Positions 39,321 to 59,042 of a stretch of 64,000 nt of DNA are shown piece after piece. The notes under the pieces were generated by a model. That model was not told where the DNA came from. It worked only from the letters and a program-made list of their open reading frames with translations, and did no database searches. Source of the stretch: Nitrosopumilus sp. (GTDB taxonomy: Archaea > Thermoproteota > Nitrososphaeria > Nitrososphaerales > Nitrosopumilaceae); the NCBI GenBank assembly GCA_965203315.1, contig OZ241857.1, forward strand, positions 960,001 through 1,024,000, written 5' to 3'. A program made the position numbers and the translations under genes. Each line of letters starts with the position of its first letter. Position 1 is the stretch's first letter.

Positions 39321-40857
39321 GGAGTTCATGCGAAAGTCGTTTTGAAGACTCGGGACGCCTAGCAACAAAGACATTCCAAATTATAAAGTGATCTCAGGTT
39401 TGTGATCTGTGCAATTGTACAATTATACATGTAGAGTCAAAACAGTGAATTATACCTTGATATCTTACAATATCATTCTATAAATCACAATGTTGGTGCG
39501 TATTATTTACGCAACTATTCGGTGAGATAATTTCATCTTTTTTAGTTTAGCCTGTTTTTTACGGTTTATCTTTACTCTCCATGCTGCAACAAGCTCTTCT
39601 AATCTAGGACTAGGTCTGCCGTGTTCATGATCCCAAAGAACGTGATAGTTGACCAGTGTAGATGCCATCTTGAAGGCATCGTTGTATTGGTCGTCATCTC
39701 CTCGGAACATGTTGAACAAGAGTTTAAACTGCTTTACACATCCAACTACGTGTTCTACTGTGGCGCGTTCACTGTCTATCTTTTTGTTGTATATCTCTTG
39801 TTCTTTTGTGAGTTGCCCACCTTTGGGTTTCTTGTATTTTATGCCTATCTTGGCACCTACAAAGATATCTCGAATCCCTAGGAATCCCAGATCTACTAGA
39901 ATGTACAGTCTTTGGCGAAGTGGAGTGTTTGGATCTGTTAACGACATGGACCACTTGCCAAGATTCAGTTTGAGCTCTTTGAATATGCTGAAATCGTGTG
40001 TCTTACCAGGAAACGTAGGAGACACATGTACTATCAGTCTCTCTTTTGTACACATCAATAGAGTATTTACCGTATGCATCTTTTTTTTGCCTGATTTGTA
40101 GTCATTGCGTATCTCTCTATCTACGGGTGTTGGAACACGAGTGTGTGATCCATCGAACAAGAATGTATGATCCTTTACCCATTTTGCAAGCTCTTTCTTT
40201 GTCTTGCATTTACTTATCGCATTTGCCAACTCGTCTGGCGAAAAACCCAAACTTTGAAAAAACTGATTCATGTATGTACAGTACCGGGACACATTACTCT
40301 GATCTATACCAAATCTACTGGCAAGATGGCACTGACTGTGACCACTTACCAGTCTCAGAATTGCCAAGAGCATGGCATACTCGGGAGTTAGTTTGGATAT
40401 TCTTCCACGCACTATGAGAACATTACGAAACTGTCTGTGAACATCTGCTGCCGGTATCCATTCTATAAACAGGCCGAGCAAAAAGTTAAACATGTCAAAA
40501 TCCAGCTTTGTATGCTCCCATAGAGTCTTTTCATTGCTAAGAATATTCTTACATGGAGGGAGCTCGAGTTCTTTTTTTGCTGCTTTGAGCTGTTCTTCTG
40601 CTATATCTGCACGTTCTTCGGCTGCTTTGAGTCGTTGTTCAAGCACTAGTTCCTTGTTCGAGTTAGCCATACTCTTGTTTATTCAAATTGGTATTTACCA
40701 TAGAGTGTCTTAAAAAATTGTCTTGTTGCGTATTCTATTTTTGGTTAATTTTTTACTCCTCCTCAGATACACGAAACCCGCAATAACTCGGAGAATTTAG
40801 TCAGATTTGACCCATCACACATCATATGTGCCTGAAAATGACTTTCGCATGAACTCC
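39321..40857 (-). mobile_element. IS5-family (DDE_Tnp_4/Harbinger-like) insertion sequence, 1537 bp
   Basis: Perfect 18-bp TIRs GGAGTTCATGCGAAAGTC / GACTTTCGCATGAACTCC, flanked by the 3-bp direct repeat ATG. Confidence 0.93.
39507..40670 (-). CDS. Transposase (HTH_Tnp_4 plus DDE_Tnp_4 type)
   Basis: LASRFGIDQSNVSR HTH, FDGSH, SGKKKMH, HD, DLGF and RATVEH. Confidence 0.92.
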   Translation of the reverse strand: MANSNKELVLEQRLKAAEERADIAEEQLKAAKKELELPPCKNILSNEKTLWEHTKLDFDMFNFLLGLFIEWIPAADVHRQFRNVLIVRGRISKLTPEYAMLLAILRLVSGHSQCHLASRFGIDQSNVSRYCTYMNQFFQSLGFSPDELANAISKCKTKKELAKWVKDHTFLFDGSHTRVPTPVDREIRNDYKSGKKKMHTVNTLLMCTKERLIVHVSPTFPGKTHDFSIFKELKLNLGKWSMSLTDPNTPLRQRLYILVDLGFLGIRDIFVGAKIGIKYKKPKGGQLTKEQEIYNKKIDSERATVEHVVGCVKQFKLLFNMFRGDDDQYNDAFKMASTLVNYHVLWDHEHGRPSPRLEELVAAWRVKINRKKQAKLKKMKLSHRIVA

Positions 40858-43100: not shown

Positions 43101-44843
43101 ATGTGGCATATACTAAAGATTAATATCATAGTACAATTGTTTATACAAACATTGCTAGTATACGAATTATATTTACAAAACAAAGATTCTGGTAGTGAGT
43201 CTGGAAAGGGAAATCCAATAAAAAAGATCTTTATCGACAAAGATGTTATCGAGATAGATGATACTCCAATAGACAAGTATGGCAAAGAGTGTACAGCAAA
43301 CCACATAAAAAATTGGCTACAAGAAAACTTGGACATGCCTATCGATATTAGAAGAGAGGTTGGCCTCCCAAACAAAATTGTTGCATCAAATGCAGCAAAA
43401 CCATATATCACAATATATGGATATATCAATCTGAACATCAAAGACAAAAAAGGTAAGAAAGAGATCTCGGGTAGAATAACACTAGGAGATAAAAAAAGAA
43501 AACCATATGCAGAGTTATCTTTTCCTGAAAAAGAGATAGAGATTGACAGTATCGACACCAAATTAAAAATAAACGACTCGGAATATTTTACATCAGACGA
43601 GGTCACACTATATGAGCAATATCACAAAAATCAGATAATTCGAAATGGAAACTTGCCGGCTGAGCTCTTTGAAAAGATTGCTCAAGAGTTTTTCAAGTAC
43701 ATTTTAGACAAAGAAGTTGAACCGCCCAATGGTAAAACTGCATTTCATTTATACATACTTCCAAATAATAGTCATATCAAATATGTACCAAAAAACCAGA
43801 AAAAAGACGAACCAGAAACGATTGATGCGTTTGGAGAAACAGGCACATGGTCCAACAAACGATCACAAGGCGTGACTTTTTTTTCATATGATGATAAAGC
43901 ATTTACTATCAACTGTAAGGAAAAAGAAGAATTTTATAAGAATGTTGGAATTAATGATTCATCATTGGAAAATATTTTTCTTCCTGAAAAAAATAAAATA
44001 AACATAGTCGGATTTGAGTGGTATTTTCTTAACGTAAAAGATCAAAAAGAGGTTTTTCAAAAAGGTGGAATTTATGAACAAATATATACAAACTATCAAA
44101 AACTTAAGCAAGACAACATAGAACAAAATGCGTATTGTAAAATACTTTGTGTTAAAAAAACGCAAGCAAAACGAGAAGTGTTGATAGACGAAAATCTGAC
44201 AATGGGCATGATGGATCAGATCTTTAAAGGTGTCACAGAAAAAGATCTAGTTCCGTCAGCATATGAAAGATTGATTGTTACTCGTAGAAAAAAATCAACA
44301 TATCGCTATTATATTCAAGCCATAAAATCGCTACTAAATCAGACATCGTTTGACCGAGAACAGTTGAATAAAATATTCATAGAACAGATTCGGATCAAGA
44401 TACGTGAGTGGATAAAGGCAAAGTCAGACAACGAGCCCATAGAATGGTTCAACCAATTCGAGTTTTGTTACAAAACATTAATATATACTGAAAAGGGAAA
44501 AGATATCATGGACTATGAAAAATTTGCTGAAAATGTAGGAAAAATGTCCAGAGAGTATATTACGTTTAGAAAAAAAGTTGGAAGCGACAATAATTCATTA
44601 CGAGATATTTTGACAAAGACGAAATATGACCGAGAAACACTAAAGTTTGTGGTAAAAACAATCTCAAGAGGCATACATTTGACAAATACAACTAATAAAC
44701 AAGAGTTAGAGAAAATTGACAATAAAATATCTAAATTGATGTCATCGTCACAGATCGATATTGATCAAAACAAAGACATTGTAAATAGAGACATGTCATA
44801 CTATTTTTACCTAGGCTATTTTAGGAGGCAAGAAACAAATTGA
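43101..44843 (+). CDS. cas8b: CRISPR type I-B large subunit (divergent Cas8b-like); true start uncertain
   Basis: First gene before cas7/cas5/cas3; helical C-terminus ending YYFYLGY. Assigned mainly by position. Confidence 0.7.
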   Translation: MWHILKINIIVQLFIQTLLVYELYLQNKDSGSESGKGNPIKKIFIDKDVIEIDDTPIDKYGKECTANHIKNWLQENLDMPIDIRREVGLPNKIVASNAAKPYITIYGYINLNIKDKKGKKEISGRITLGDKKRKPYAELSFPEKEIEIDSIDTKLKINDSEYFTSDEVTLYEQYHKNQIIRNGNLPAELFEKIAQEFFKYILDKEVEPPNGKTAFHLYILPNNSHIKYVPKNQKKDEPETIDAFGETGTWSNKRSQGVTFFSYDDKAFTINCKEKEEFYKNVGINDSSLENIFLPEKNKINIVGFEWYFLNVKDQKEVFQKGGIYEQIYTNYQKLKQDNIEQNAYCKILCVKKTQAKREVLIDENLTMGMMDQIFKGVTEKDLVPSAYERLIVTRRKKSTYRYYIQAIKSLLNQTSFDREQLNKIFIEQIRIKIREWIKAKSDNEPIEWFNQFEFCYKTLIYTEKGKDIMDYEKFAENVGKMSREYITFRKKVGSDNNSLRDILTKTKYDRETLKFVVKTISRGIHLTNTTNKQELEKIDNKISKLMSSSQIDIDQNKDIVNRDMSYYFYLGYFRRQETN

Positions 44844-45763
44844 TCAAATCTGAAATACTCTTCTACTACGAATCAAGACAAAATCCAAATGGGGATCCGG
44901 ACGCAGACAATCAACCACGGATTATGCATGATGACACAATTATCGTAACAGATGTAAGAATAAAAAGAACTATACGTGATTTTGCAAAAGAGAAACACGG
45001 TTATAAGCTCTTTGTAGATTATGGAAAAGATGGCAACCCGGTAAGAGCAGACGAACGAGCAAAAGAGATACGTGAATCTGCAGAAGATAAAACAAAAGGC
45101 TACATTGAAACACTGCTTGAAAACACATTCGATGTTCCACTATTTGGCGGTTTAGTAACAATACGTGGCAACACAGAAGATGAAGAGTCTGGAGCAGACA
45201 AAATTACTGGTCCGGTTCAATTTGCAATTGGGAGAAGTGTCAATAAAGTCAACATAATTCAACCATCAATCACTGCGAGATTTGTTGGGCGTGAAAAAGA
45301 AGGTAAAGTTCAGCACTCCACCATTGGAAGATTCTATGCTGTAGAATATGCGTTGCTAAAGATCATGGGGGCTATAAATCCTACAAATCTTGGAAAATAT
45401 CATAATGGATCAATTAAGACAAAATTTGAAAAATATGTTGACGAACTTCCATTGATATTATGGGACGGTACAAATCAGTTAATCACGAGATCAAAATATC
45501 CACAAAAAAGCATCTTATTCATCCAAGTTGATTACAAGGATGTCATATATAATGATCTAGGCGATCTAGTAGACGAAAACGATTCATTAAAAGATCGGCC
45601 TACCGAACTCGGTATCCAACCATTAAACTTTGATAGACTAGTATCAACATTAAACCAACGAAAAGATAAGATCTATAGGCTAAGAATAAAATCAATCGAT
45701 GACGTGAACATATCTACACTCACAGAGAAATTGGATAGCAGTATCACTGTTGAATTGTTATAA
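44840..45763 (+). CDS. cas7: Cas7 (Csh2-type)
   Basis: NPNGDPDADNQPR, VTDVRIKRTIRD, DVPLFGG and TGPVQF. Confidence 0.93.
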   Translation: MIKSEILFYYESRQNPNGDPDADNQPRIMHDDTIIVTDVRIKRTIRDFAKEKHGYKLFVDYGKDGNPVRADERAKEIRESAEDKTKGYIETLLENTFDVPLFGGLVTIRGNTEDEESGADKITGPVQFAIGRSVNKVNIIQPSITARFVGREKEGKVQHSTIGRFYAVEYALLKIMGAINPTNLGKYHNGSIKTKFEKYVDELPLILWDGTNQLITRSKYPQKSILFIQVDYKDVIYNDLGDLVDENDSLKDRPTELGIQPLNFDRLVSTLNQRKDKIYRLRIKSIDDVNISTLTEKLDSSITVELL

Positions 45764-46506
45764 TGACAAAGATAATCTCGTTTGACATAACTGGTCAATT
45801 CGCATCGTTTAGGGATCCATCAATCACATCAAATCAAACAGTGTACTATATACCATCAAAATCATCAGTAATAGGAATATTGGGAGCCATAACAGGTGTT
45901 GTTCGTAGCAACAAATTAGGTGATTTATACGCTAAAGAATATGTAGAATTTTTTTCTCAGATTCAAATTGGCATACAGTTGCTAAACAATCCAAAAAAAA
46001 TCACATATTTTACAAATTATCGTTCATTAAAAGATGCAAAAACAAAACCGGTAAAGAAAGAGATACTAGAAAAACCAAGATATAGGATTTATATCAAAAG
46101 TTCTACAGAAATGCTAGAAAATATAAAGCAAACCACAATAAACAACACATATCATTTTTCACCCTATCTGGGTCACGCATATTGTCCTGCAACAATAACA
46201 AACACCCAAATATATGATGCACAAAGAATTGATACTGTAAATGATGAAGAGACCGAATGTGTAATATTAGATGAAGCAGAAAATTTTAATGAGAATTTTA
46301 ACATATCGTTACAAATAAAATTTGATGAGGGCTCAGTTATGATCGAGCGACATTTGCATCATTTTATTAAAGAAAATCAATTAGAGAAAAGAGTCTTAAA
46401 ACATTGGGTACCCATAGAATCATCTACGTGCATCATTGAACAAATAGAGAAAAATACATTATCAGAATTTTATAAAATTGGTCAAAAGGTGTGTTGTATC
46501 TTTTGA
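45763..46506 (+). CDS. cas5: Cas5
   Basis: FDITGQFASFR, PSKSSVIGILGAITG and PYLG. Confidence 0.92.
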   Translation: MTKIISFDITGQFASFRDPSITSNQTVYYIPSKSSVIGILGAITGVVRSNKLGDLYAKEYVEFFSQIQIGIQLLNNPKKITYFTNYRSLKDAKTKPVKKEILEKPRYRIYIKSSTEMLENIKQTTINNTYHFSPYLGHAYCPATITNTQIYDAQRIDTVNDEETECVILDEAENFNENFNISLQIKFDEGSVMIERHLHHFIKENQLEKRVLKHWVPIESSTCIIEQIEKNTLSEFYKIGQKVCCIF

Positions 46507-48668
46507 CTTTTTTGTCACATTATGATATGCGATTAATTGATCATTTGAAAACAGTAGCAGATAGATCAGAAGAAATTGTAAAATACACTAAATTTGAATC
46601 GAGTAAAATCGCATACATCTCAGGACTTTTTCATGATTTAGGGAAGCTAAACCCGTATTATCAAAAAATGTTTGCAGAAGAACCTGGTAGAGAAAAAGAA
46701 GTAAAAAAAGAGCTAGGAAAAGAATATGATGAATTTCATTCGCCATACTCTCAATGGTTATCAAGTAAACTGCTTAAATCTACAGAGTTATCTGCTCAAG
46801 AAAAACAAATAATATTAATGATGATTTATTCTCACCACGGAGTCAAACGAAACAGCCTTGGAAAAGACCGCAATAGCGATAAAAGTCGAAATACTAAACG
46901 CCACATAATAGATAACTGGAAAAAATTTATAGAATTATACGCCAATACAGATGAGTTTAAAAAATTTAATACAAATATTGAACTTGATGAGCGCGATAAA
47001 ATTCACAGAGTTGGCAATTTAAAGGTGAGAAATGAACAGTCATATCTAGAAGAGTTCATTGAAATTTCTTATCTATTTTCTGCCTTATTACAAGCAGATA
47101 AAGGAAGTTTTAGTGACAGTAAACCAAAAAAAATCGATTTTTGTATAAATACAAAAAACTTGGAGAAAAATACCAAACTGGGAGACTATAGAACTAAATT
47201 TCAAAATCATGTATTAGAATCAATCAAGTCACATAATAGCCCAATAACTATTATAAATGCACCAACAGGAATTGGTAAAACAAAAGCATTTCTAGATATT
47301 ACCAATTATTTACTAGAACAATCATCAGGCATAGAGAGAGTATTTTATTTTGCTCCATTACTAGCTCTCACGGATGATTTTGAAAGTAAATTTAAAGAAT
47401 GCATACCAGATGAGAGTCAATGTCTTACATACAATCATATCTATTCCGGTACTCTAGATAAGAAAGATAATGACAAGCATGAAGAAAATAATGAACCAAC
47501 ATGGAAGTTTGATCAAGAAGCATTTAATGAGAAATTCATAATAACAACCATGCATAGACTTTTGATGACTATATATTCAAATAAAAACAGAGATAGTATG
47601 AAGTTTGCGTCATTAAGAGATTCTTTATTAATTTTAGACGAAGTTCAAACATTGCCAAAATTCCTCTTAAAAAATTTGTGCGAGATTTTTAAAATAATGA
47701 AAGACAAGATGAACACTAGAATAATTCTACTAAGTGCAACAATACCACATGAGTTATGTGGATTAGATACAATTAAAATGAATGAGCAAGATAAACATGC
47801 GTATCTTAAAACACGAGAACGTGAGATCATTATTTGTGATAGAGTAGATATTAGTGATATGTCACATGGAGCAAATTTAATCATGGTCAACACAAGAAAA
47901 GAAGCAGTTACAAAATTTGATGAAATGAAAACTAAGAGCAAAAACGTTTTCTATATTTCGTCAGGTGTGACTAAAGAAAAGCAGAGAGAGATATTAACAA
48001 AAATTAGAAAAGAAATAGATGAAAAAAGAGACTTTATTCTAATTGCAACTCAGGTAGTTGAATCAGGAGTAGATATCAGTTTTTCAAATATATGGAGACA
48101 GATGGCGCCTTTAGACAACATCATACAAATGATAGGTAGATTAGATCGAGAAAACGAAAATAGTGCAAGTAAGATGTACATATTTCCAGCTAAAAACTCG
48201 ACACCCTATTCTACACTAGAATTTCAAACCTCAAAAAAATATTTAATGAACATAAGTAATTCTAGCCAGTTGTACCAAATACTACCAGAATATTACAAAG
48301 AGATATCAATGGAGAATAAGACCCAGCTTGAAAACTCTATAAAATTAGAGAACAAGATTAAATGTTTGGATTTTAAAGAAGTGTGGAACATAATACATAA
48401 ACATCTAATTCAAGATTATAACGAGTCAGTCTATATACCAAACAAAATAGAGGATTGGGAATCAATTCGTGATGATTTACTATCTAACAAGAAACGAGAT
48501 CTCAGAAAACACAGCAAATTGATTGCATCACTACCAAAAAATCCATATGATATCAAAGATTTGTTTGATGAAGACTTGTTTGAGAAAAAGATACTATATC
48601 CTAAAAAAGATAAAGTAAAAGATCTATATGATGAACACATAGGGTTGGATAAATGGAAGAGACAATAA
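46491..48668 (+). CDS. cas3: Cas3 HD nuclease-helicase
   Basis: LIDHL, HDLGK, HHG, AD; APTGIGKT, DEVQ, SAT, TQVVESGVDI and QMIGR. Confidence 0.95.
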   Translation: MLYLLTFLSHYDMRLIDHLKTVADRSEEIVKYTKFESSKIAYISGLFHDLGKLNPYYQKMFAEEPGREKEVKKELGKEYDEFHSPYSQWLSSKLLKSTELSAQEKQIILMMIYSHHGVKRNSLGKDRNSDKSRNTKRHIIDNWKKFIELYANTDEFKKFNTNIELDERDKIHRVGNLKVRNEQSYLEEFIEISYLFSALLQADKGSFSDSKPKKIDFCINTKNLEKNTKLGDYRTKFQNHVLESIKSHNSPITIINAPTGIGKTKAFLDITNYLLEQSSGIERVFYFAPLLALTDDFESKFKECIPDESQCLTYNHIYSGTLDKKDNDKHEENNEPTWKFDQEAFNEKFIITTMHRLLMTIYSNKNRDSMKFASLRDSLLILDEVQTLPKFLLKNLCEIFKIMKDKMNTRIILLSATIPHELCGLDTIKMNEQDKHAYLKTREREIIICDRVDISDMSHGANLIMVNTRKEAVTKFDEMKTKSKNVFYISSGVTKEKQREILTKIRKEIDEKRDFILIATQVVESGVDISFSNIWRQMAPLDNIIQMIGRLDRENENSASKMYIFPAKNSTPYSTLEFQTSKKYLMNISNSSQLYQILPEYYKEISMENKTQLENSIKLENKIKCLDFKEVWNIIHKHLIQDYNESVYIPNKIEDWESIRDDLLSNKKRDLRKHSKLIASLPKNPYDIKDLFDEDLFEKKILYPKKDKVKDLYDEHIGLDKWKRQ

Positions 48669-49309
48669 ACATATGTTATTCTAAAATTAGTGTAGATTCA
48701 GACATTACACTTACAGCTACACAATTACGTTCATACATAGGATATAGATTCATTACAGATACAGAATTTCATCATCACGATGATAGACCATACCATTACC
48801 CACTAATACAATACAAGAGAGTGCGAGGCCAGCTATATGTTATGGGTATTTCGAATTGCTCTAGACTTGTGTTTGATAGAGTGTCAGGATTACAATATAT
48901 TGTACTTGCTAAAAAAAATATCCCTATTACAAATATTATATTTGAAAATACAAAACATAGGTTAACAGATGAAATCACGACATATTCATTTTCAAGTCCT
49001 TGGATTGCATTAAATACAGAAAACTATACAAAATTTAAAAATATTGATTCTCGATTCAAAAAAAGGTTTTTAGAAGATATTTTAGTCGGTAACTTGTTAA
49101 GCATGCTTAAAGGTTTAGATATTAGAATAAGTTATCAATTATATGTAAATATAAAATGGTACAAAGAAATACCCATTATTGCACATAAACACAGTTTTTC
49201 TGGATTTCATGCAAATTTCACAACAAATTTATCATTACCAAAATATATAGGATTAGGAAAAAGTGTGTCAAAAGGGTTTGGTATCATTCATAGACACAAT
49301 CAGGCATAA
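48653..49309 (+). CDS. cas6: Cas6 endoribonuclease
   Basis: FHHH...YPLIQYK, SPWIALN, and C-terminal GLGKSVSKGFG. Confidence 0.92.
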   Translation: MEETINICYSKISVDSDITLTATQLRSYIGYRFITDTEFHHHDDRPYHYPLIQYKRVRGQLYVMGISNCSRLVFDRVSGLQYIVLAKKNIPITNIIFENTKHRLTDEITTYSFSSPWIALNTENYTKFKNIDSRFKKRFLEDILVGNLLSMLKGLDIRISYQLYVNIKWYKEIPIIAHKHSFSGFHANFTTNLSLPKYIGLGKSVSKGFGIIHRHNQA

Positions 49310-49352
49310 AAAGTATCGACAAAATAATAAAGTAGTCAATACACCCAACAAT

Positions 49353-50333
49353 ATGATCATAGAGATTGCAACTCATGGATCTAGTATCAAAAGGAGACGA
49401 GAGAGATTTTTGATAAGGATCCCAGATCAAAAAGACTCGGAAATATCTGCAGAAAAAGTCAGTGCCATATTAATAAGCGCTAATGCTATGATAAGCACAT
49501 CAGCAGTAAAACTTTGTATAGAAAGACACATACAACTAGTCATAACAGGTTGGTCAGGTAAACCTATTGCACGAATGTGGACGAGTTCGCCTGGACGACA
49601 AACTCAAATTCGAAGGCAACAATATTTAAATTATGATACTCAATTTGCATTTGAAACAATCAAACAGATATTGATCGAAAAATTAGGAAGACAAAAACGA
49701 TTTTTAAGTGAATTAAAACGAAACAGAAAAGACGAAACAATTGTAAAGAATCTCTCAGAGGCGATAATTTTTTTTAATAAAATTATACATGAAGTTAAAG
49801 ATTCAAAATACAACAAATCATTCGCTAATAGCTTTTTAGGATTTGAGGGTAGTTGCGCAGTAAGATATTTCAGTATGTTATCAGCATGTTTGCCAAAAAA
49901 ATGGCGATTTTTAAAGCGAACACAAAATCCTGGATTAGATCCTTTTAATGCAGCTCTCAATTACATGTATGGAATTGCATATTCAAACATAGAAAAAGTG
50001 GTAGTATTGTCAGGTTTAGATCCTACTGCAGGATTTTATCATAAAGATAATTACGGAAAACCAACACTAGTATTTGACTTGATCGAACCATGTAGACCAA
50101 TAATTGATAAATCATTAGTATATTTGTTTAATCGACGTATTGTGAGAGAAGGCTGGTTTGCAAATTCAGCAAGTCCATGTACATATGTTGAATTAACAAA
50201 AGAGGGTAGATCTGAGCTAATCTCAACATATAGAGAAAATTGCCAGAAGAATATTGAAAAAGAGACGTGGAACAGATGTCAAAATCTGACAAAGTCACTT
50301 CTAGAACTTGATAGAGAGGTTGATATAAAATGA
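49353..50333 (+). CDS. cas1: Cas1 integrase
   Basis: GFEG, YF, DPFNAALNYMY, GLDPTAGFYH and LVFDLIEP; ATG 49353 preferred. Confidence 0.96.
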   Translation: MIIEIATHGSSIKRRRERFLIRIPDQKDSEISAEKVSAILISANAMISTSAVKLCIERHIQLVITGWSGKPIARMWTSSPGRQTQIRRQQYLNYDTQFAFETIKQILIEKLGRQKRFLSELKRNRKDETIVKNLSEAIIFFNKIIHEVKDSKYNKSFANSFLGFEGSCAVRYFSMLSACLPKKWRFLKRTQNPGLDPFNAALNYMYGIAYSNIEKVVVLSGLDPTAGFYHKDNYGKPTLVFDLIEPCRPIIDKSLVYLFNRRIVREGWFANSASPCTYVELTKEGRSELISTYRENCQKNIEKETWNRCQNLTKSLLELDREVDIK

Positions 50334-50626
50334 AATCAATTTACTATGCGGTATATGATATTAGTCAAGATGGCATACGTGAAACAGTGATAAATATACT
50401 AAAAGATGCTGGGTTGAGTCGAGTACAAAAGAGCGTCTTTTGTGGAATGATTTCCAATCAGGAGAAGAAAGATTTAGCTGAAAGAATAAAAAGAATAATA
50501 GACGCTGAGACTGACTCGTTTTATTTAATTATGAATTGCAATCGATGCTTTGAAAAAGTCATACTCATTGGAAACGACTTTGATCTTCAATACGTTACAA
50601 ATAGCAAGCCCTCAATGGTGTTTTGA
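50330..50626 (+). CDS. cas2: Cas2
   Basis: VYDIS and RVQKSVF. Confidence 0.96.
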   Translation: MKSIYYAVYDISQDGIRETVINILKDAGLSRVQKSVFCGMISNQEKKDLAERIKRIIDAETDSFYLIMNCNRCFEKVILIGNDFDLQYVTNSKPSMVF

Positions 50627-50627
50627 G

Positions 50628-51215
50628 ATGATTACGGTAACAACGGTTGTTGAGCATGTGTTTTGTCCAAAGTTCACATATTATGGTCAAGTCATGGGTC
50701 TAGAGCAATACGAAGAAAAGCGAGGCACTGTAATTTCCGGAAGAGAACATCATAGTAAATCAGAAAAAACAAATAGAAATTTTATCCCGCAAAATCTGCA
50801 AGGAGAGAAGATCACGTCCTTAAAGATGTATTCAAAGAAACATGGCTATGTTGGGATAGTAGATCACTGTGTAGTAACTAGTAACGAAGTAGTGCTTTTT
50901 GAGCGTAAATATACAAGCCAAGTAAAAGTTCATGATAGTCTCAGGGTCCAACTGGGCTTACTTTCAATACTACTAGAAGAGAATCTCGCCAAGCCAGTTC
51001 ATAGGGCATTTGTAATATTTACCAAAGATGACACCAGAACGCAGATCGAAGTAGAGATCGATGCTGGTATGAAAGAGTTTGCCATAGATAGTCTGAATGA
51101 TGTCAAAAAAGTTATCAAGGAGTCCCTACTACCAGTATCCCATTATGACAATCGGTGCGTAAATTGCTGTTATAACAAAATATGTGATGTAGGTTCATTA
51201 AATAGTCCAAGATAA
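50628..51215 (+). CDS. cas4: Cas4
   Basis: FCPK, GIVD...ERK RecB motif, and C-terminal CxxCxxxxxC. Confidence 0.93.
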   Translation: MITVTTVVEHVFCPKFTYYGQVMGLEQYEEKRGTVISGREHHSKSEKTNRNFIPQNLQGEKITSLKMYSKKHGYVGIVDHCVVTSNEVVLFERKYTSQVKVHDSLRVQLGLLSILLEENLAKPVHRAFVIFTKDDTRTQIEVEIDAGMKEFAIDSLNDVKKVIKESLLPVSHYDNRCVNCCYNKICDVGSLNSPR

Positions 51216-51294
51216 TTTTATATTAATGACATATGAAAACCAATATCATGTAATATTGAGCGTTGTTTAGGCATTTATAGCAAAAAAACGGGCT
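51216..51294 (+). promoter_or_regulatory. Probable short CRISPR leader
   Basis: AT-rich with TTTATA boxes. The adjacent repeat is perfect, whereas the distal repeat is degenerate. Confidence 0.6.
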
Positions 51295-54200
51295 GTCTGA
51301 ATGAAACTTCTACTAAAACAAAGATTGAAACTATAATAAAAAAAGGAGTGGGGTGATGTTGGCTAGTCTGAATGAAACTTCTACTAAAACAAAGATTGAA
51401 ACTAACCACCACTCCTTTTTTTATTCACAAATATTAGTCTGAATGAAACTTCTACTAAAACAAAGATTGAAACACCAAGTGTCAATAGCGTGATAATAGC
51501 GTGTCAAAGTCTGAATGAAACTTCTACTAAAACAAAGATTGAAACATCGCTTGACCGTGTTTAGTACGTGCTTCCAAATTAGTCTGAATGAAACTTCTAC
51601 TAAAACAAAGATTGAAACTAACATACCACACCCAAACCACGACGCATACAAATGTCTGAATGAAACTTCTACTAAAACAAAGATTGAAACCCGCTTGTTT
51701 TCAGGAATCCACGTGTCGACATGTTAAGTCTGAATGAAACTTCTACTAAAACAAAGATTGAAACTTCTTTGCTTCATGAAATCGTTCTTTCCAATTGTCG
51801 TCTGAATGAAACTTCTACTAAAACAAAGATTGAAACCACGGTGTCTGACCGTGATAATATCCACACATTCTAGTCTGAATGAAACTTCTACTAAAACAAA
51901 GATTGAAACTGGTCATCAGCGTATATACAACTGTGTGGTGTTGGGTCTGAATGAAACTTCTACTAAAACAAAGATTGAAACTCCGATAGTGAGCGGTGTT
52001 TTCTATTGGAATGAAGTCTGAATGAAACTTCTACTAAAACAAAGATTGAAACCTCAACGTGATGTCTGGCTTGATTTGCTTTTGCCTGAGTCTGAATGAA
52101 ACTTCTACTAAAACAAAGATTGAAACCTGTTTGTAGTTGCGTAGCCTGTTTGATTTTTTGCGTCTGAATGAAACTTCTACTAAAACAAAGATTGAAACGT
52201 AAATGGATCACATGTTCTCTTTTTGCTTATGCAGTCTGAATGAAACTTCTACTAAAACAAAGATTGAAACAACAGGTGATGACAACACAGTACATCACCG
52301 TACTTGTCTGAATGAAACTTCTACTAAAACAAAGATTGAAACTGTAAAACATCTAGAGCGCGAGAACGAAGCGATGGTCTGAATGAAACTTCTACTAAAA
52401 CAAAGATTGAAACTCCTGTCGTAACGTCCACTCCTGAAGTCTTGAGCAGTCTGAATGAAACTTCTACTAAAACAAAGATTGAAACGACATCTCATGCTAT
52501 TTTCTCTAGAGACACTAGAGAGTCTGAATGAAACTTCTACTAAAACAAAGATTGAAACCATATTTTTATGCGTTATTTAAACGCAAAATAAAAGTCTGAA
52601 TGAAACTTCTACTAAAACAAAGATTGAAACTCATCTGATTCGTTTAATGCCCATAGGTATTTTTCGTCTGAATGAAACTTCTACTAAAACAAAGATTGAA
52701 ACATCACCTATTGATATAATGTAATATGTGATTTAGTCGTCTGAATGAAACTTCTACTAAAACAAAGATTGAAACCAATATCTGGGATATAATACGTATA
52801 TTAAGCTTCAGTCTGAATGAAACTTCTACTAAAACAAAGATTGAAACTCGATACGCCATAGCCCTCACTATTTGGCACCTCATGTCTGAATGAAACTTCT
52901 ACTAAAACAAAGATTGAAACATGCCCTCCCAGCGATAATCGTCCACATTGCGTTTGGAGTCTGAATGAAACTTCTACTAAAACAAAGATTGAAACTCTTG
53001 TGCCTTCTATCTGCCTCTTTAGCAGCTTGTGTCTGAATGAAACTTCTACTAAAACAAAGATTGAAACAGCGTACATGGGTATTTTTTGGGCTTTTTTTCT
53101 CTGTCTGAATGAAACTTCTACTAAAACAAAGATTGAAACTGAACTAAAAACTATACAGGTGTTGGTTTCGGTCAATAGTCTGAATGAAACTTCTACTAAA
53201 ACAAAGATTGAAACTCGGCGCAGTCTATTACGTCTTGGATTGCTTCCTCTGTCTGAATGAAACTTCTACTAAAACAAAGATTGAAACCGATAATTGAGGA
53301 ATAAAAAAAGAAAAGGGGTGATGTGTCTGAATGAAACTTCTACTAAAACAAAGATTGAAACAGTATTATCCTCCTTTTTTTTATCCAAAAATCGTAGTCT
53401 GAATGAAACTTCTACTAAAACAAAGATTGAAACTCATCAACGCTTTGATCATGTCGTCCAATGCTTGACCCGTCTGAATGAAACTTCTACTAAAACAAAG
53501 ATTGAAACCCCTCTTTTTCTCATGTTTGTTCATTTTTTCCAACTTCGTCTGAATGAAACTTCTACTAAAACAAAGATTGAAACACGCAAAATAAAATCTG
53601 AATATTGGGATCTGTACAGATCGTCTGAATGAAACTTCTACTAAAACAAAGATTGAAACATGATTTTTTCAAGGATAAATCCTTGTGGTGTCTGTGGTCT
53701 GAATGAAACTTCTACTAAAACAAAGATTGAAACAACGCATATATGCGTACCCATTTTACGATCACCCGTCTGAATGAAACTTCTACTAAAACAAAGATTG
53801 AAACTGGACAAGTACGGTAATTTTTTACATACATGGTTTGTCTGAATGAAACTTCTACTAAAACAAAGATTGAAACGGATAGATCGCAATTCAGACCCAC
53901 AAGGACTTCATAGTCTGAATGAAACTTCTACTAAAACAAAGATTGAAACTCGTAATATCTGTAATAATACATGAAGCATCTAGAACGTCTGAATGAAACT
54001 TCTACTAAAACAAAGATTGAAACTTTCGCGATCTGTTTCATTCGATCAGATCGCGCGATCGCGTCTGAATGAAACTTCTACTAAAACAAAGATTGAAACA
54101 GAGATCTGTTAAGAGATCTCAAAAGCCTAAAAAGGTCTGAATGAAACTTCTACTAAAACAAAGATTGAAACAGTCAAATATCGCATAAAAATATGCAAAA

Positions 54201-56339
54201 AAAAAAGGTCTGAATGAAACTTCTACTAAAACAAAGATTGAAACTTTTCTATTGCACTCTAATCAGCACCCAAGATGAGTCTGAATGAAACTTCTACTAA
54301 AACAAAGATTGAAACTTCTTCATCTTTACATAGGATTGCCAATGCCATTGAGTCTGAATGAAACTTCTACTAAAACAAAGATTGAAACTTGGTACGAGTA
54401 CGACGAGCGTGAAGCAACAAGAGGTCTGAATGAAACTTCTACTAAAACAAAGATTGAAACTTGCTATGCACTTCTAAACATGGCTGGATTGTGTGTCTGA
54501 ATGAAACTTCTACTAAAACAAAGATTGAAACTGTACCTGATATACCTCGTAGTATCGGGTCTCGGGTCTGAATGAAACTTCTACTAAAACAAAGATTGAA
54601 ACTTTGGAAGATCTGAGTAAGAAAGAGTACGGTGCAGTCTGAATGAAACTTCTACTAAAACAAAGATTGAAACCTTCTTTTTTTCATTGATCATTGTTTT
54701 GATGTATTCGTCTGAATGAAACTTCTACTAAAACAAAGATTGAAACAATCAAATATCGCATAAAAATATGCAAAAAAAAAAGAGTCTGAATGAAACTTCT
54801 ACTAAAACAAAGATTGAAACATTAAGCCTATTACGGCTTGATCTCTTTTTTCTTGTCTGAATGAAACTTCTACTAAAACAAAGATTGAAACTATCGTAGA
54901 TACAAACACAGACCTAGAAATCATACGTCTGAATGAAACTTCTACTAAAACAAAGATTGAAACTCATAATATAAGACTTTAGAATTTAAGCCAGAATTGT
55001 CTGAATGAAACTTCTACTAAAACAAAGATTGAAACTAGACACGTACTAGTTATATCCCTCCTTTTTTTATTTGTCTGAATGAAACTTCTACTAAAACAAA
55101 GATTGAAACTGTATATGCCTGATAAATCAATATCAGTCAGGTATAGTCTGAATGAAACTTCTACTAAAACAAAGATTGAAACTTTAGAAGAGCTCTCTTC
55201 TAAACAGTACGGTGCACCTAGTCTGAATGAAACTTCTACTAAAACAAAGATTGAAACCTGATCTGATTCCAGATCATCATCATGTTCTATAGTCTGAATG
55301 AAACTTCTACTAAAACAAAGATTGAAACATGTACAGGTGGGCGGTGGCGTTGGTGATCTTGGCGTGTCTGAATGAAACTTCTACTAAAACAAAGATTGAA
55401 ACGCTCAGGCATCAATGAAGCAACAAATCGTTAACTGTCTGAATGAAACTTCTACTAAAACAAAGATTGAAACATTTTAGATGCTGCGCCAGTTGCGAGT
55501 TGGATTCCGTCTGAATGAAACTTCTACTAAAACAAAGATTGAAACTGTGCCTTCATCGTTTTTCTGTGGGCTGATATCTGTCTGAATGAAACTTCTACTA
55601 AAACAAAGATTGAAACCTGTTTCTGGCATAGTCCATACTTTGTATGTGATTTGTCTGAATGAAACTTCTACTAAAACAAAGATTGAAACCACAATTAACA
55701 AAATACAGAGTGCGTGGTAATAATAGTCTGAATGAAACTTCTACTAAAACAAAGATTGAAACAAACAATTGGAGGTTAAACCATGATAGACGATGAGGTC
55801 TGAATGAAACTTCTACTAAAACAAAGATTGAAACCCAAACAGCACCGTGCAAGAATCACACATGTAGCGGTCTGAATGAAACTTCTACTAAAACAAAGAT
55901 TGAAACTCTGGGATATTAGACGTATTATTAAATCTATCAGGGTCTGAATGAAACTTCTACTAAAACAAAGATTGAAACATGTCTGGTATATTGCTTCGGT
56001 TTGGGTGGTTTTGGTCTGAATGAAACTTCTACTAAAACAAAGATTGAAACATCGTACTTCATCATCGTCGGTGTCAATATCGTGTGTCTGAATGAAACTT
56101 CTACTAAAACAAAGATTGAAACACCCACCACCACTCCTTTTTTCAATATTCTTTCTGGGTCTGAATGAAACTTCTACTAAAACAAAGATTGAAACTTATC
56201 GCACTTCCTATGAACGCTGCCGGTACGTTATGTCTGAATGAAACTTCTACTAAAACAAAGATTGAAACGGAACACAGATGCGTATAAAATATGCCAAATC
56301 TGGTCTGAATGAAACTTCTACTAAAACAAAGATTGAAAT
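51295..56339 (+). CRISPR. CRISPR array: 70 repeats of 37 bp (GTCTGAATGAAACTTCTACTAAAACAAAGATTGAAAC) and 69 spacers of 34-39 bp
   Basis: Repeats counted by hand; 3' ATTGAAAC handle; the last repeat ends GAAAT. Confidence 0.98.
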
Positions 56340-56693: not shown

Positions 56694-57538
56694 TTAACAA
56701 GCTGCAGCAGCAATCTTTGGCGGAGGCCATTTTTCTCGATAGAGTTCAATGTAATCTAGCACAAGATCTCTGAACGTAAGTTGAGGAATGTGCCACCAAC
56801 CAACATTCAATGGATCATTTTCATCATCTATGTTACGTGCTATGATCCAAGCATTATAAAACAAAAGAGAAAAAGAAAACAACAAATCTCTTACTGATTC
56901 ATTTTTAGTTGTAGTTGGTAATCTCATCTTATCGACTACCCTATATCCAGTTTCAATAACCCATCGCTTTGCGTATTTTTTTGTATCAATTCTTGGATTG
57001 TTTGTTGCGAATGGAATGTAGTCTATTTTACCATCCTTTTCAATTTCTTCTATGATCATGTAATAGTCCATTGACAAGCCTTTGCCATTAGAGATCGTAC
57101 GTTTTGATACTCGTTTACGTTTTCCTTGTTTGTACTCTTCTAGATATCGCCTTGTCTTGGCGTTATTTTGACAGATGGTGAGAAATGTGTAACCTCGACC
57201 TTGCAGCAGCTGCAAGATCTGTGTAGTAAGAAACTCACGATCCATCAACCAGTTACCAATGTCCAGACGCAGATCTTCACAATCTTTGATGATTTTACGC
57301 ACAAAATTGGGGTTTTGGTCTCCTTTGTACATGGCATGTTTTGACACAACTAGTGTTTCGCCTTCGTTTATGACTTGTGCTGTCATGTACTTTTCATGTA
57401 ATGCATATCTGTCGTCAACCGGACCATAGCATAGTTTAGTATCTGTTTTGTCATCATATCGTGCATATTTGTGCAGATCAATTGCTATATCTTTTGGCTC
57501 TTTAGACCAACGACCCATATCTTGTAATGCTGCGATGT
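56694..57538 (-). pseudogene. 5'-truncated ISH3/IS4-like transposase
   Basis: IAIDLH, LMDREF and RWVIETGYR form a DDE triad. The frame stays open up to the IS6-like TIR at 57539, so the N-terminus is missing. Confidence 0.8.
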
Positions 57539-59042
57539 GGATCTTTTCGATTTACGTTGGATGGATTTTTTTTTACAGACACATCATTGCAAGACTTTAT
57601 GGAATTATTGAAACGAAATATTCAAACTTTGTATTAAAATGTCAATTAAAAAAACACTTGTTATTTAATTCTGTTAGAATTTACTAGACAAATTTAAAAT
57701 TATACAGAGTTTTCACTGCGTTCAGTATTAATGTGCGCCATTTATTTGCTCCTTTTATGATAATTCCAGCTCTGTCGGCTGGTGTGTCACTGTTTAAACC
57801 CATATGTGGTCTAATGTAATTGTAATGTATTCTAATTCCACGAATAAGAAAAGCATTTTTGAAGCCTTTGATTTTTTGTTCAACATGTCTAAACTTTCCA
57901 TTAAAACTCTCCATCTCATTGTTGTGTACATGATCACCTGCCATGTGAATTTCTCTAATGTGAATAGATGACTTGCCTGATTTTGCTTTTGCAAATATCT
58001 TCTTAAACGATGCTTCATAACAAGCTGCGCCATCAGTTATCAGCACAGATGGTGTTTTTTGTGCAATCTTTTCTGCTTCTTTAAATAATTTATTGACTTG
58101 TGCTTTATTTTTCTTCTTGCCAACTTGACTGCCCAGCCAAAACCTTGTTTTACGATCCAGCATCGCAAAGAGATAATGCAGTTTGCCATTGATCTCGAAC
58201 CACACTTCATCAGCATGATATATCTCACCAATTTGAGGTGCGAGTGTTGAAATGTACTCATCCATCAATTTGACGTATCTTACAGTCCAGTCGTGAATGG
58301 TGGTACACCCAACTTTGACACCTTTCTTTGCCAAAAATTGTACGACTTCACTCAAGCTAGATCCTGTAAGATGTAAATGTATTGCATCAGTTACATGCTC
58401 TGGTGACGCGGCTAGTCCCTCAAATCCTACATTTCCAGAAAACGATACCTCGCATATCTTGCAGTAATATTTTTGATTATCATAATTTTTGTTAGGTCTG
58501 ATGCCATTTTTTACAGTCTCTAGTGTGCCACAATGTTTACAACAAATCTTGCCATCATTTAGTGACTCTAGCGTAGTTTCTTTTGTTTTTGTCCCAACCT
58601 CCACTACGATATCAACCATTTTGACATGTTTGCATCTCTTTTTTCCAAACTTGTAGCCTTTACAAGTGCAAAACCAATTTCCTGGTTCACCCATAACATC
58701 GTATGTTTCATCTCCTGTTTGAATCTTGACTTTGTAGTGGTTATCTTGTACTTTTTTGACACACTTGCACATTTCCAAATATTCTTTTGTAGCATCAGAC
58801 ATGCAGATTTGCTCTAGATTTTGCTTCACATGTGTAGTAGAAATATACTAGTATATACCACTTTTTTTAAAAAAAGTTAATTTTTTAGTTAAAAAAATTT
58901 TATTCATTTAAAGTTTTCTATCATATACTAAATTACAAATAGAAATCTAGTAAATATGACGCAATCGCTTTATTTTTGAAGTGTTGGGTAGTTTTAGGAA
59001 AAAGTCGTCTAAAAAACCATCCAACGTAAATCGAAAACATCC
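57539..59042 (-). mobile_element. IS6-like insertion sequence, 1504 bp
   Basis: 26-bp TIRs GGATCTTTTCGATTTACGTTGGATGG / CCATCCAACGTAAATCGAAAACATCC (one mismatch); no target duplication. Confidence 0.9.
57684..58829 (-). CDS. IS6-family DDE transposase with N-terminal SWIM zinc finger and zinc ribbon
   Basis: CTC...CKH (SWIM), CKHC...CKIC, ADEV, TDG, NEMESF and HYNYIRPH. Confidence 0.9.
   Translation of the reverse strand: MKQNLEQICMSDATKEYLEMCKCVKKVQDNHYKVKIQTGDETYDVMGEPGNWFCTCKGYKFGKKRCKHVKMVDIVVEVGTKTKETTLESLNDGKICCKHCGTLETVKNGIRPNKNYDNQKYYCKICEVSFSGNVGFEGLAASPEHVTDAIHLHLTGSSLSEVVQFLAKKGVKVGCTTIHDWTVRYVKLMDEYISTLAPQIGEIYHADEVWFEINGKLHYLFAMLDRKTRFWLGSQVGKKKNKAQVNKLFKEAEKIAQKTPSVLITDGAACYEASFKKIFAKAKSGKSSIHIREIHMAGDHVHNNEMESFNGKFRHVEQKIKGFKNAFLIRGIRIHYNYIRPHMGLNSDTPADRAGIIIKGANKWRTLILNAVKTLYNFKFV

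Follow-up and report, generated by a model that had tools for sequence, protein, structure and literature searches.

Six of the 69 spacers in a CRISPR array of an ammonia-oxidising archaeon share a C-rich pyrimidine run that leads into an oligo-T run, which raises the question of what these spacers were copied from and why one short signal recurs among them. The array lies in the 64,000-nucleotide (nt) stretch of Nitrosopumilus sp. DNA analysed here (the window), and its host carries amoA. Our preferred answer, to which we assign a probability of roughly 0.55, is that the six spacers were copied from the ends of transcription units in a lineage of tailed viruses, repeatedly from a single block of the viral genome that is a hot spot for spacers.

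The CRISPR–Cas locus

The array is preceded by a leader and by one operon that holds a type I-B-like gene set (Cas3 with HD and helicase domains, Cas5, Cas7, Cas6b, Cas1, Cas2 and Cas4).

43101..51215, + strand: cas operon, type I-B-like by Pfam profile matches, in the order 580-aa open reading frame (large-subunit position), cas7, cas5, cas3, cas6b, cas1, cas2, cas4
51216..51294, + strand: leader, 79 nt, AT-rich, from the cas4 stop to the first repeat
51295..56339, + strand: CRISPR array, 70 repeats of 37 nt ending ATTGAAAC, 69 spacers

Pfam matches cover Cas_Cas7 (1e-39), Cas_Cas5d, the HD and helicase parts of Cas3, the N and C domains of Cas6b, Cas1 (5e-68), Cas2 and Cas4. The best NCBIfam match of Cas7 is the type I-B family Csh2, at 131 bits and below the curated cut-off of 171.55, and the 580-aa frame in the large-subunit (Cas8b) position (43101-44843) matched no family in Pfam or NCBIfam. 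A regular-expression parse of the array gives spacer lengths of 34–39 nt (n = 69) and 69 identical repeats out of 70, the last one deviating at its final base; because this degenerate repeat lies at the far end, spacer 1 is the newest. The array is the only one with this repeat in the seven-contig assembly, none of 400 other genomes searched in the family has the repeat, and CRISPR looks uncommon in this archaeal family.

A motif shared by six spacers

An earlier note on this DNA, made from the letters alone, had picked out the six spacers by position, and its central observation is sound: all six coordinates are spacer starts, and the strings that it quoted are present.

51332..51365, + strand: spacer 1 (newest), motif as reverse complement
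51403..51436, + strand: spacer 2, motif forward: TAA stop, CCACCACTCC, T7, ATT
53288..53324, + strand: spacer 28, loose motif, reverse complement
53362..53396, + strand: spacer 29, motif forward, CCTCC + T8
55036..55072, + strand: spacer 52, motif forward, CCCTCC + T7
56123..56158, + strand: spacer 67, motif forward, CCACCACCACTCC + T6

The strict form, CTCC followed by T6 or longer, occurs in 5 of the 69 spacers (2, 29, 52 and 67 forward, 1 in reverse) with runs of T6-8, so that the CTCC-T6-8 description holds for these five and not for spacer 28, which has a looser version, CCCC-TTTTC-T7. Both orientations do occur, as had been noted, spacers 1 and 28 carrying the reverse complement. The further statement that the flanks differ applies to part of the set: spacers 1 and 28 are the same at 22 of 25 aligned bases, flank included, and spacers 2 and 67 agree in 22 of 25 aligned columns, the remaining three being one 3-nt gap (alignment score 36).

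The strict motif is rare, with only 15 occurrences on both strands of the 2.47-Mb assembly. Spacers of 38.6% mean G+C might be expected to resemble one another to some degree, T-runs being common in AT-rich DNA, but chance resemblance has a practically negligible probability. The shared words reach 14–17 nt, the longest exact ones (17 nt) joining spacers 2 and 67 and spacers 1 and 2; the pairs 1/28, 2/67, 1/2 and 1/67 have gapped alignment scores of 34–38, above the maximum of 30 among 23,460 shuffled pairs; and P is ~6e-6 against the composition of the virus-like contig described below. Over all spacer pairs, 54 words of at least 9 nt are shared, whereas 30 shuffles averaged 17.9 such words and never gave more than 30. 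The pairs 1/28, 2/67, 40/48, 21/64 and 46/54 all outscore every shuffled pair, as expected if related sites were sampled repeatedly; the similarity of spacers 29 and 52 is borderline (score 28 versus a null maximum of 30).

A virus-like contig targeted by the array

The assembly that contains the host also contains a 53.6-kb contig, C7, which encodes a terminase large subunit, an MCM-like helicase, an exonuclease, a methyltransferase and an HNH endonuclease. Judged by its gene content, C7 is a tailed-virus-like element on a complete-looking contig. Four protospacers in it match their spacers perfectly, and a TTA or TTG PAM lies 5′ of each.

52343..52448, + strand: spacers 15 and 16, perfect C7 matches (spacer 15, 34/34 at C7 1914-1881, PAM TTA; spacer 16, 35/35 at C7 47025-47059, PAM TTG)
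54316..54351, + strand: spacer 42, 36/36 at C7 53262-53297, PAM TTA
56051..56085, + strand: spacer 66, 35/35 at C7 3078-3112, PAM TTG

On the spacer-identical strand, TTA or TTG precedes 4 of 4 perfect and 7 of 9 significant C7 matches, compared with a background of ~4% of C7 positions (4339 of 107,170). For 58 of the 69 spacers, no C7 match rises above the shuffled level.

Terminator-like ends in a block of small genes

Between about 1300 and 5300, C7 contains a block of 4 kb in which ten small genes, each a unit of its own, lie on one strand. Most of these genes have their own promoter-like box containing ATTATCGTAA, a word with 6 copies on the same strand of the block versus 7 in the other 2.4 Mb. 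Eight of the ten gene ends carry a pyrimidine tract with T6-7, the run starting 0–16 nt after the stop, in a recurrent pattern of stop codon, short C-rich pyrimidine tract, T6-7 and then usually AT. Elsewhere in C7 a T5+ run within 45 nt of a stop was found at 1 of 39 genes (24173-24811), the last gene of the long plus-strand late block. Seen together, spacers and C7 sites share a run of at least 5 T in pyrimidine context, with T6-8 after CTCC, CCCCC or TCCC. Of the seven CC+T6 sites in C7, five start no more than 10 nt past a stop codon and read in sense, a placement with a chance of ~2e-10 by rough estimate, and these five lie within 3 kb. Host genes do not usually end this way, a point against our preferred answer: of 989 long host open reading frames, 6 carry CC+T6 no more than 40 nt from the stop, and 6.2% have any T6 run there.

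The C7 positions support the interpretation of the motif as a putative archaeal oligo-T (U-tract) terminator: its location is observed, and its function is suggested by where it lies. Among the listed sequencing runs that contain this DNA, none is recorded as RNA. The proposal that the invader carries a dispersed, repeated terminator-like element is thereby borne out by five C7 copies in sense behind small-gene stops, and the alternative wording of a cassette boundary fits too, since the element marks off promoter–ORF–terminator units of one gene each. In archaea, U-tracts together with aCPSF1 are reported to act as terminators, the number of U-tracts setting the termination efficiency, and the thaumarchaeal aCPSF1 orthologue is described as acting alike (PMC8716108). 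The host has a candidate aCPSF1, a β-CASP domain in a 659-aa open frame at C1:1360341. The C7 and spacer motif resembles such terminators in having T6-8 on the sense strand after pyrimidines, at the 3′ end of the transcription unit; it differs in that the putative C7 terminator begins on the stop codon or within 16 nt of it, and in a conserved, C-rich lead-in (CTCC or CCCCC) that is rare at host gene ends.

A bacterial-type intrinsic terminator was considered and rejected, as no consistent stable G+C-rich hairpin directly precedes the T-run. When the 40 nt before the run were folded, four of eight sites had z ≤ −2.7 and the remaining four z > −1.4; stems, where present, end 7–12 nt before the run.

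Read on the opposite strand, the motif becomes an A-run, GGAG and then G-rich sequence, and could be a Shine–Dalgarno site before viral start codons. The host 16S ends GGATCACCTCCTTT at its 3′ side, and the reverse complement of the motif does resemble the complement of that end; an ATG follows the G-rich part by a few bases in spacers 1 and 28; and the 17-nt core may play this part in 29 IMG/VR contigs that contain it and are dissimilar to C7. We nevertheless hold this explanation to be very improbable for the six spacers. Behind none of the five C7 copies does a credible open reading frame start on the purine-rich strand, the sole candidates being frames with TTG or GTG starts that run antisense to genes with a promoter-like box, whereas the other strand has a promoter-fronted, ATG-initiated frame ending exactly at the motif; the late operon is also closed by the same T-run signal.

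Where the motif spacers match C7

Spacer 1 has 15 nt identical to C7 1347-1361, a terminator-like site after the stop at 1365, with TTG as the PAM in C7. The first 23 nt of spacer 2 equal C7 2973-2951, comprising the stop codon and terminator-like tract of a 156-aa gene; overall its identity there is 26/34 (z 5.8) and the PAM is the non-consensus CTA. Seventeen nt of spacer 67 are identical to C7 2971-2955, and the perfect protospacer of spacer 66 lies ~105 nt from the terminator-like site that resembles spacers 2 and 67. Spacer 28 shares 18 nt with C7 1817-1834, an interrupted T-run after the stop at 1836; it starts CGATAAT, which after a TTA PAM (the PAM here being inferred) would spell ATTATCGTAA, the promoter-like word of the C7 block, on the opposite strand. 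Spacer 29 has no significant match to C7 and the match of spacer 52 is limited to a 15-nt core; these two spacers have no C7 locus assignment.

Exact protospacers of the six were found in no collection searched; the case that they come from C7-like blocks is made by partial matches of 15–23 identical bases. They do not all map to one locus, given partial matches on at least three C7 terminators (stops 1365, 1836 and 2971). Nor do they behave as six independent loci: spacers 1 and 28, and spacers 2 and 67, look like the same or sister terminators taken from diverged variants. Mosaicism of the virus shows in a run from another study, which contains near-identical pieces of C7 (1576-2753, 3472-4585 and 4979-5283, with 0 to 6 other letters each) and has almost no depth at C7 2809-3276, the gene and terminator-like unit matched by spacers 2, 67 and 66.

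A spacer hot spot and repeated sampling reduce the excess

Five of the nine significant C7 matches fall inside 1300-5300, which is 7.5% of the contig (P 2e-4), and seven of nine fall in 52600 to the end plus 1-5300, which is 11.8% (P 9e-6), although the detection of partial matches favours conserved segments and may inflate this hot spot; of the four perfect matches, two lie inside the block (P 0.03). PAMs are as dense in the block as in the rest of C7 (85 versus 80 per kb).

Whether the motif exceeds its share of PAM-adjacent sites depends on the reference. The excess is real over the whole of C7, from which 0.25 strict-motif spacers per 69 would be expected and 5 were seen (P ~6e-6). It shrinks to 5 seen against 2.0 expected per 69 if all spacers came from the block (P 0.05), and to P = 0.31 for three or more when the six are counted as three loci at the block rate, because the block is a spacer hot spot and homologous terminators were sampled repeatedly (1/28 and 2/67). 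Acquisition biased to the motif itself, one of two explanations offered in the earlier note, is thus not required, the hot spot being the whole small-gene block, with ~2 of 69 expected if spacers come from such blocks. T6+ or A6+ runs occur in 15 of 69 spacers; the corresponding share is 12% for PAM sites in the block (P 0.016) and 2.5% over the whole of C7, and some extra bias to T-run DNA beyond block sampling may exist.

A direct bias of acquisition towards the motif or T-run DNA could arise if prespacers came from broken DNA, stalled forks or R-loops where strong terminators close early units under heavy transcription, or if Cas1–Cas2–Cas4 preferred T-run DNA. The residual excess of strict spacers under the most generous, block-only model and the T-run count just given speak for it, as do two adjacent motif pairs, (1,2) and (28,29), with P 0.057 for at least two pairs, and the report that highly transcribed loci are hot spots in Pyrococcus, where a type I-F case is also cited (PMC5737086). 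Yet the T-run starts anywhere from position 13 to 27 and in both orientations, so the motif is neither PAM-locked nor ruler-locked; the block has no higher PAM density; re-sampling of homologous loci takes away much of the excess; and the source genomes may be richer in T-runs than C7. On balance, we consider such a bias unlikely.

Motif spacers might instead be kept, or prime the uptake of more spacers, if their shared core let them recognise several sites or variants, producing a self-reinforcing family. In type I systems, among them the type I-B systems of haloarchaea, primed adaptation is known, and a target that is seed-matched and PAM-mismatched primes rather than interferes. Spacer 2 on C7 is of this kind, matching over 23 PAM-proximal bases and then diverging, next to its CTA PAM; the C7-matching spacers also cluster, and there are several old–new pairs of related spacers. 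Against this, with the site of spacer 2 itself set aside, motif spacers match at most 23 of 36–37 bases on 9 C7 terminators, PAMs at cross-matched terminators are mostly wrong and, unlike in primed adaptation, C7 matches fall on both strands with no visible strand bias. The idea that retained spacers cross-react with many sites likewise fares poorly, as the best identity to a non-best C7 terminator is 22/34. Retention or priming as the cause of the family is in our view rather doubtful.

We therefore return to repeated copying from a hot-spot block as the preferred explanation. C7 would be one member of the tailed virus lineage that supplied the six spacers, and the type I-B system, with its 5′ TTA/TTG PAM, would have sampled the C7-type block far more than the rest of the virus. 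As the block is full of look-alike terminators, many spacers from it would have the motif in common. Homologous terminators would have been re-taken from diverged variants (spacer 28 then 1; 67 then 2; perhaps 52 then 29), and the count would rise to six because they were taken more than once. The hot spot most likely marks the places on the incoming or replicating genome at which usable DNA ends form; the block adjoins the terminase gene and a likely packaging start. Uptake primed by older spacers with partial matches may add to this.

Relation to known systems

Hot spots of acquisition in archaea are reported at free DNA ends and highly transcribed loci, and a phage-terminus case is cited (PMC5737086). 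C7 resembles these in that, with PAM density taken into account, its protospacers are concentrated in one region, and differs in that its hot spot is deduced from a natural 69-spacer array and one reference virus rather than from an acquisition experiment. Spacers from AT-rich elements are described as bearing promoter motifs and T-rich pyrimidine terminator motifs (PMC3315313), and work on Cbp1 and Cren7 describes how spacers from AT-rich viruses bring such motifs into Sulfolobales arrays (PMC3315313, PMC10883916). Those motifs were generic and counted over thousands of spacers, whereas here the loci of one specific family of viral terminators can be found in a virus from the host's own assembly, and the host is an ammonia oxidiser. 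Among tailed phages, early or accessory blocks of promoter–ORF–terminator units are comparable, as the ten small genes of C7 adjoin packaging genes and the block is mosaic between variants; C7, as an archaeal virus, has TATA-type promoter boxes and oligo-T ends, not sigma-70 promoters and hairpin terminators. The case is a record of a host and its virus, with known kinds of signal and hot spot, and adds no new mechanism.

Implications

Viral terminators that enter an array in sense orientation could act as internal terminators of the pre-crRNA and would then poison long arrays, a possibility that we regard as quite improbable. The crRNA-sense strand of this array carries 12 T6+ runs in 11 spacers; spacer 2 (T7), the first, and ten further spacers (T6-8) would cause stepwise attenuation from the leader. 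All four perfect anti-C7 spacers (15, 16, 42 and 66) lie behind at least two sense-strand T-runs and, if internal termination were real, would be under-expressed, which would explain how C7 persists beside a nominally immune host in the same assembly. The terminator-dense early block and the hot spot would then amount to a passive counter-defence, and spacers that carry terminators would be a price paid for sampling regulatory DNA, perhaps also a viral escape route.

The matches also counsel caution in spacer-based host assignment, as matches of 15–23 nt to regulatory repeats can mislink a spacer to a locus or element. Few host–virus pairs are known in ammonia-oxidising archaea, and C7 is tied to its host by four perfect spacers. 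The locus gives the PAM (5′ TTA/TTG) and the part of the virus that the system remembers, and the C7 block offers candidate promoter and terminator signals for a poorly studied group, of possible use in annotation and in building genetic tools.

The CRISPR locus and its host

The genome (2.47 Mb in seven contigs, 39% G+C) belongs to an archaeon, with a small-subunit rRNA that scores 1437 bits against the archaeal model versus 1079 against the bacterial one. As amoA is present and mcrA absent, the host is an ammonia oxidiser. A regular-expression parse of the window delimits 70 direct repeats of 37 nt (51295-56339), 69 of them identical, the final base deviating in the last copy, and 69 spacers of 34-39 nt. 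Upstream of the array lies an apparently intact cas operon encoding Cas7, Cas5, Cas3 (HD and helicase domains), Cas6b, Cas1, Cas2 and Cas4; a 580-aa open reading frame (ORF) at the large-subunit position matched no Pfam or NCBIfam family. We call the system type I-B-like, the nearest model to its Cas7 being type I-B Csh2, with a score below the curated cut-off. Spacer 1 is the newest, as follows from the arrangement cas, leader, array and from the degeneracy of the final repeat.

Transposase genes (DDE_Tnp_4, DDE_Tnp_1 and IS240-like) stand on both sides of the locus, at 39507-40670, 56694-57518 and 57684-58829. A search for the repeat that tolerated 3 mismatches gave no match in 400 other family genomes, and a 29-nt piece of it was absent from the genome and metagenome contigs searched. 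The flanking transposases and the absence of the repeat from the 400 genomes are compatible with acquisition of the CRISPR-cas locus as a mobile block.

A pyrimidine/oligo-T core shared among spacers

Six positions had been singled out in the earlier note as spacers converging on a terminator-like motif; each of the six coincides with the start of a spacer, and the strings given there are present. The strict motif, CTCC followed by at least six T, occurs in 5 of the 69 spacers and 15 times in the whole assembly, both strands counted.

Motif spacers (sp, numbered from the leader; window position, motif)
51332, sp1, strict motif, reverse
51403, sp2, strict motif, forward
53288, sp28, looser form, CCCC-TTTTC-T7
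53362, sp29, strict motif, forward
55036, sp52, strict motif, forward
56123, sp67, strict motif, forward

The resemblance among these spacers is not due to chance: the longest exact words they share reach 17 nt, and four pairs (sp1/sp28, sp2/sp67, sp1/sp2 and sp1/sp67) have gapped alignment scores of 34-38, against a maximum of 30 in 23,460 shuffled pairs. Since the similarity of some pairs extends into the flanks, it is more than a generic pyrimidine/T pattern. The description of their flanks as different thus fails for sp1/sp28 (identity 22/25) and sp2/sp67, in which flank and core are both common. As a seventh member we considered sp31, which matches the C7 terminator at 4313 in 25 of 38 positions, not above shuffles (C7 being a viral contig of the same assembly).

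Other spacers are also related to one another. The pair sp40/sp48 (54172-54207 and 54747-54783) agrees at 34 bases, comprising a small palindrome and then A10, and is matched in reverse by sp18 (52559-52593); sp46/sp54 (54603-54636 and 55183-55220) form a further related pair; and sp21/sp64 (52776-52810 and 55907-55941) resemble a promoter-like repeat at C7 3444 and 5150. Regulatory repeats in general are re-sampled by the array, and the terminator is only one case.

A co-assembled virus as target

All spacers were mapped to the assembly by local BLAST and by an ungapped scan with 60 shuffles. Four match contig C7 perfectly (sp15, sp16, sp42 and sp66), each protospacer carrying the consensus protospacer-adjacent motif (PAM).

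Perfect protospacers (C7 positions)
1881-1914, consensus PAM
3078-3112, consensus PAM
47025-47059, consensus PAM
53262-53297, consensus PAM

Five partial matches outscore every one of the 60 shuffles (z at least 4.9): sp21 (31/35), sp50 (28/35), sp2 (26/34), sp23 (26/38) and sp30 (26/38). TTA or TTG precedes 7 of these 9 significant matches, including all four perfect ones, against about 4% of positions in C7, and the PAM is therefore 5' TTR. Judged by its predicted genes (terminase large subunit, MCM-like helicase, exonuclease, DNA methyltransferase and HNH endonuclease), the 53,622-bp C7 is a tailed-virus-like element. Virus and nominally immune host thus co-occur in one assembly; possibly the population is mixed, the CRISPR system is inactive or attenuated, or the virus has a counter-defence.

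The motif spacers match C7 only in part. The first 23 bases of sp2 match C7 2973-2951, a site at which sp67 matches over 17 bases; sp1 matches over 15 bases at 1347-1361, with TTG adjoining in C7, and over 17 bases at 2951-2967; and sp28 matches over 18 bases at 1817-1834.

The terminase large subunit appears as two overlapping ORFs (C7 5327-6262 and 6250-6738), only the second of which matches terminase PHROGs. In a neighbouring 887-aa ORF (7799-10462), residues 401-478 match an unrelated PHROG and might be an insertion, for example an intein.

A block of putative promoter-gene-terminator units

The partial matches of sp1, sp2, sp28 and sp67 fall in C7 ~1300-5300, a block of ten small minus-strand ORFs (40-156 aa). 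A run of T6-7 begins within 0-16 nt after the stop codon in eight of the ten genes, and in seven of those eight a C-containing pyrimidine tract leads into it.

Motif sites in the block (C7 position; stop codon, lead-in, T-run)
1365; TAG, CCCCC, T7
1836; TAA, CCCCC, TTTTC, T7
2405; TAA, CTCC, T6
2971; TAA, CCACCACTCC, T7
4313; TGA, TCCC, T6

Among the 39 other C7 genes, only one (24173-24811, the last gene of a long plus-strand structural block) has T5 or longer within 45 nt of its stop. A box containing ATTATCGTAA precedes most of the small genes; within the block, that strand has 6 copies of ATTATCGTAA, and the other 2.4 Mb together have 7. With its stop-adjacent T-runs and upstream boxes, the block has the look of a row of promoter-ORF-terminator units. 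CC+T6 occurs at seven sites in C7, five following a stop in the sense orientation and two antisense to Lys-rich coding sequence. The position proposed for the motif, as a dispersed terminator or cassette-boundary element, is thereby borne out at five of seven sites; its function as a terminator is inferred.

Also within the block, a ~90-nt element at C7 4886-4978 has at least seven copies in two host contigs (C1 912116, 60890, 1219584, 936829, 937757 and 1412430; C5 50154) at 85-94% identity, and its summed contig depth is very high in all four runs compared. Virus and host thus seem to have a small mobile or repeated element in common.

Oligo-T terminators are known in archaea. Just 4 of 8 sites have a hairpin ahead of the T-run, and there the two do not adjoin, so we rejected a bacterial hairpin terminator and regard the signal as of the archaeal oligo-T kind. 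A Shine-Dalgarno (ribosome-binding-site) reading was also rejected, the purine-rich strand having no credible ORF that starts behind the motif. From its placement, the motif is probably a transcription terminator. Published work describes the terminator motifs of archaea as pyrimidine stretches rich in T (PMC3315313) and U-tracts as acting with aCPSF1, a thaumarchaeal orthologue behaving alike (PMC8716108). The host encodes a beta-CASP open frame of 659 aa. No RNA run was among the nine sequencing runs listed for C7 1-7000.

The C-rich lead-in belongs to the virus, and the motif is not a general host gene end: of 989 long ORFs in the host, just 6 have CC+T6 within 40 nt of the stop, and 6.2% are followed by a T6 run, compared with 2.4% for the opposite strand. 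A stop-like triplet, C-rich tract and T6 form a cluster at just one further place in the assembly, host C1 307800-308145, a tandem repeat with four copies of TAGTTTG(A/G)CACCC+T6, 115 bp apart.

A hot spot and re-sampling reduce the excess

Expected frequencies were taken from every 35-mer behind TTA or TTG on both C7 strands. Across the whole of C7, 16 of 4339 such sites contain CC+T6, which predicts 0.25 in 69 spacers (P(5 or more) 6e-6); in the block the figure is 10 of 341, which predicts 2.0 on the assumption that a block of this kind supplied all 69 (P 0.05). The suggested over-representation of the motif relative to PAM-adjacent sites therefore holds against C7 as a whole and is marginal against the block.

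Five of the nine significant matches lie in the block (7.5% of C7, P 2e-4) and seven in 52600-end plus 1-5300 (11.8%, P 9e-6), figures to be read with 58 of the 69 spacers having no above-shuffle C7 match and with conserved DNA favouring the detection of partial matches. PAM density does not explain the hot spot, being 85 per kb inside the block and 80 outside. Re-acquisition from escaping virus variants is known, and here loci have been sampled repeatedly, as in sp1/sp28, sp2/sp67 and the non-motif pairs sp40/sp48, sp21/sp64 and sp46/sp54. Regional acquisition hot spots are likewise described in an earlier study (PMC5737086).

The motif excess is smaller because the block is a hot spot and its loci are re-sampled: when only three loci are counted, the whole of C7 gives P(3 or more) 0.002 and the block 0.31. 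A residual acquisition preference for T-run DNA is a less likely rival account. The five strict-motif spacers against 2.0 expected from the block speak for it, as does the presence of T6+ or A6+ in 15 of 69 spacers, such runs being found at 2.5% of sites in C7 and at 12% of those in the block (P 0.016 for the block); the hot spot and the three-locus count weaken it.

Cross-reaction and priming

Retention of the motif spacers through cross-reaction at many sites had also been proposed. When each was aligned to each of nine C7 terminators, the best identity was 26/34, for sp2 at its own site (PAM CTA); all other pairs reached at most 23 of 36-37, with PAMs mostly wrong, and these values leave cross-reactive retention unsupported.

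At C7, sp2 matches perfectly over the PAM-proximal 23 nt, its distal part has diverged and the PAM is non-consensus, features typical of targets that give rise to priming in type I systems. Primed adaptation may have contributed. No strand bias was seen among the C7 matches, and the adjacency of two motif-spacer pairs, (1,2) and (28,29), is only suggestive (P 0.057).

Mosaic variants and a search for the source virus

More than 90% of the words of C7 1-7000 are present in three runs of one study and 59% in one run of another. The latter covers C7 1576-2753, 3472-4585 and 4979-5283 near-identically (0 to 6 other letters per piece) and lacks 2754-3471 and 1171-1575, depth being close to nil over 2809-3276 and low over 1171-1404. 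Of the absent segments, 2754-3471 corresponds to exactly one unit, a promoter, 156-aa gene and terminator matched by sp21, sp66, sp2 and sp67, and the block is thus mosaic at roughly the scale of a single unit. This suggests that single promoter-gene-terminator units are exchanged or lost between variants, and such mosaicism fits spacers that carry a C7 terminator core with other flanks.

Exact protospacers of the six motif spacers were not found in the phage, plasmid, IMG/VR, JGI metagenome or GTDB contig collections, nor were close relatives of C7 or a second array with this repeat. The whole array gave only chance-level matches to enterobacterial and other phages in INPHARED (blastn, E up to 10). 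PLSDB plasmids gave no match. In IMG/VR the C7 terminase had no relative; the 17-nt core occurred in 29 contigs, none with another spacer match and none C7-like by blastn or tblastx; and no contig contained a 23-mer taken from the sp15 protospacer or the pieces searched from sp52, sp1 and sp29. A 23-mer common to sp2 and C7 was absent from JGI metagenome contigs, and an sp15 anchor from GTDB genome contigs. Terminase relatives (at most 54% identity) occur as proviruses in 18 of 400 family genomes. Seven 20-kb provirus regions from four of these genomes had no motif cluster and no significant spacer match, with protein similarity to C7 mostly limited to the terminase, and C7 block DNA gave only chance-level matches of 21-75 nt to 40 relatives.

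Putative viral terminators within the array

Each component is separately known, and novelty is confined to the instance: a long type I-B-like array in an ammonia-oxidising archaeon, its co-assembled tailed virus, a PAM and a viral terminator family traceable in the spacers. The import of transcription signals by spacers is described in two papers (PMC3315313; PMC10883916); relative to the archaeal case as reported there (PMC3315313), the imported signal here is a viral terminator family that can be traced among the spacers. The crRNA-sense strand carries 12 runs of T6 or longer in 11 spacers, the first in spacer 2. We consider it improbable that these runs act as attenuators of pre-crRNA synthesis, making the four spacers with perfect C7 matches less effective; were they to do so, attenuation of the array would account for the coexistence of C7 with its host in one assembly.
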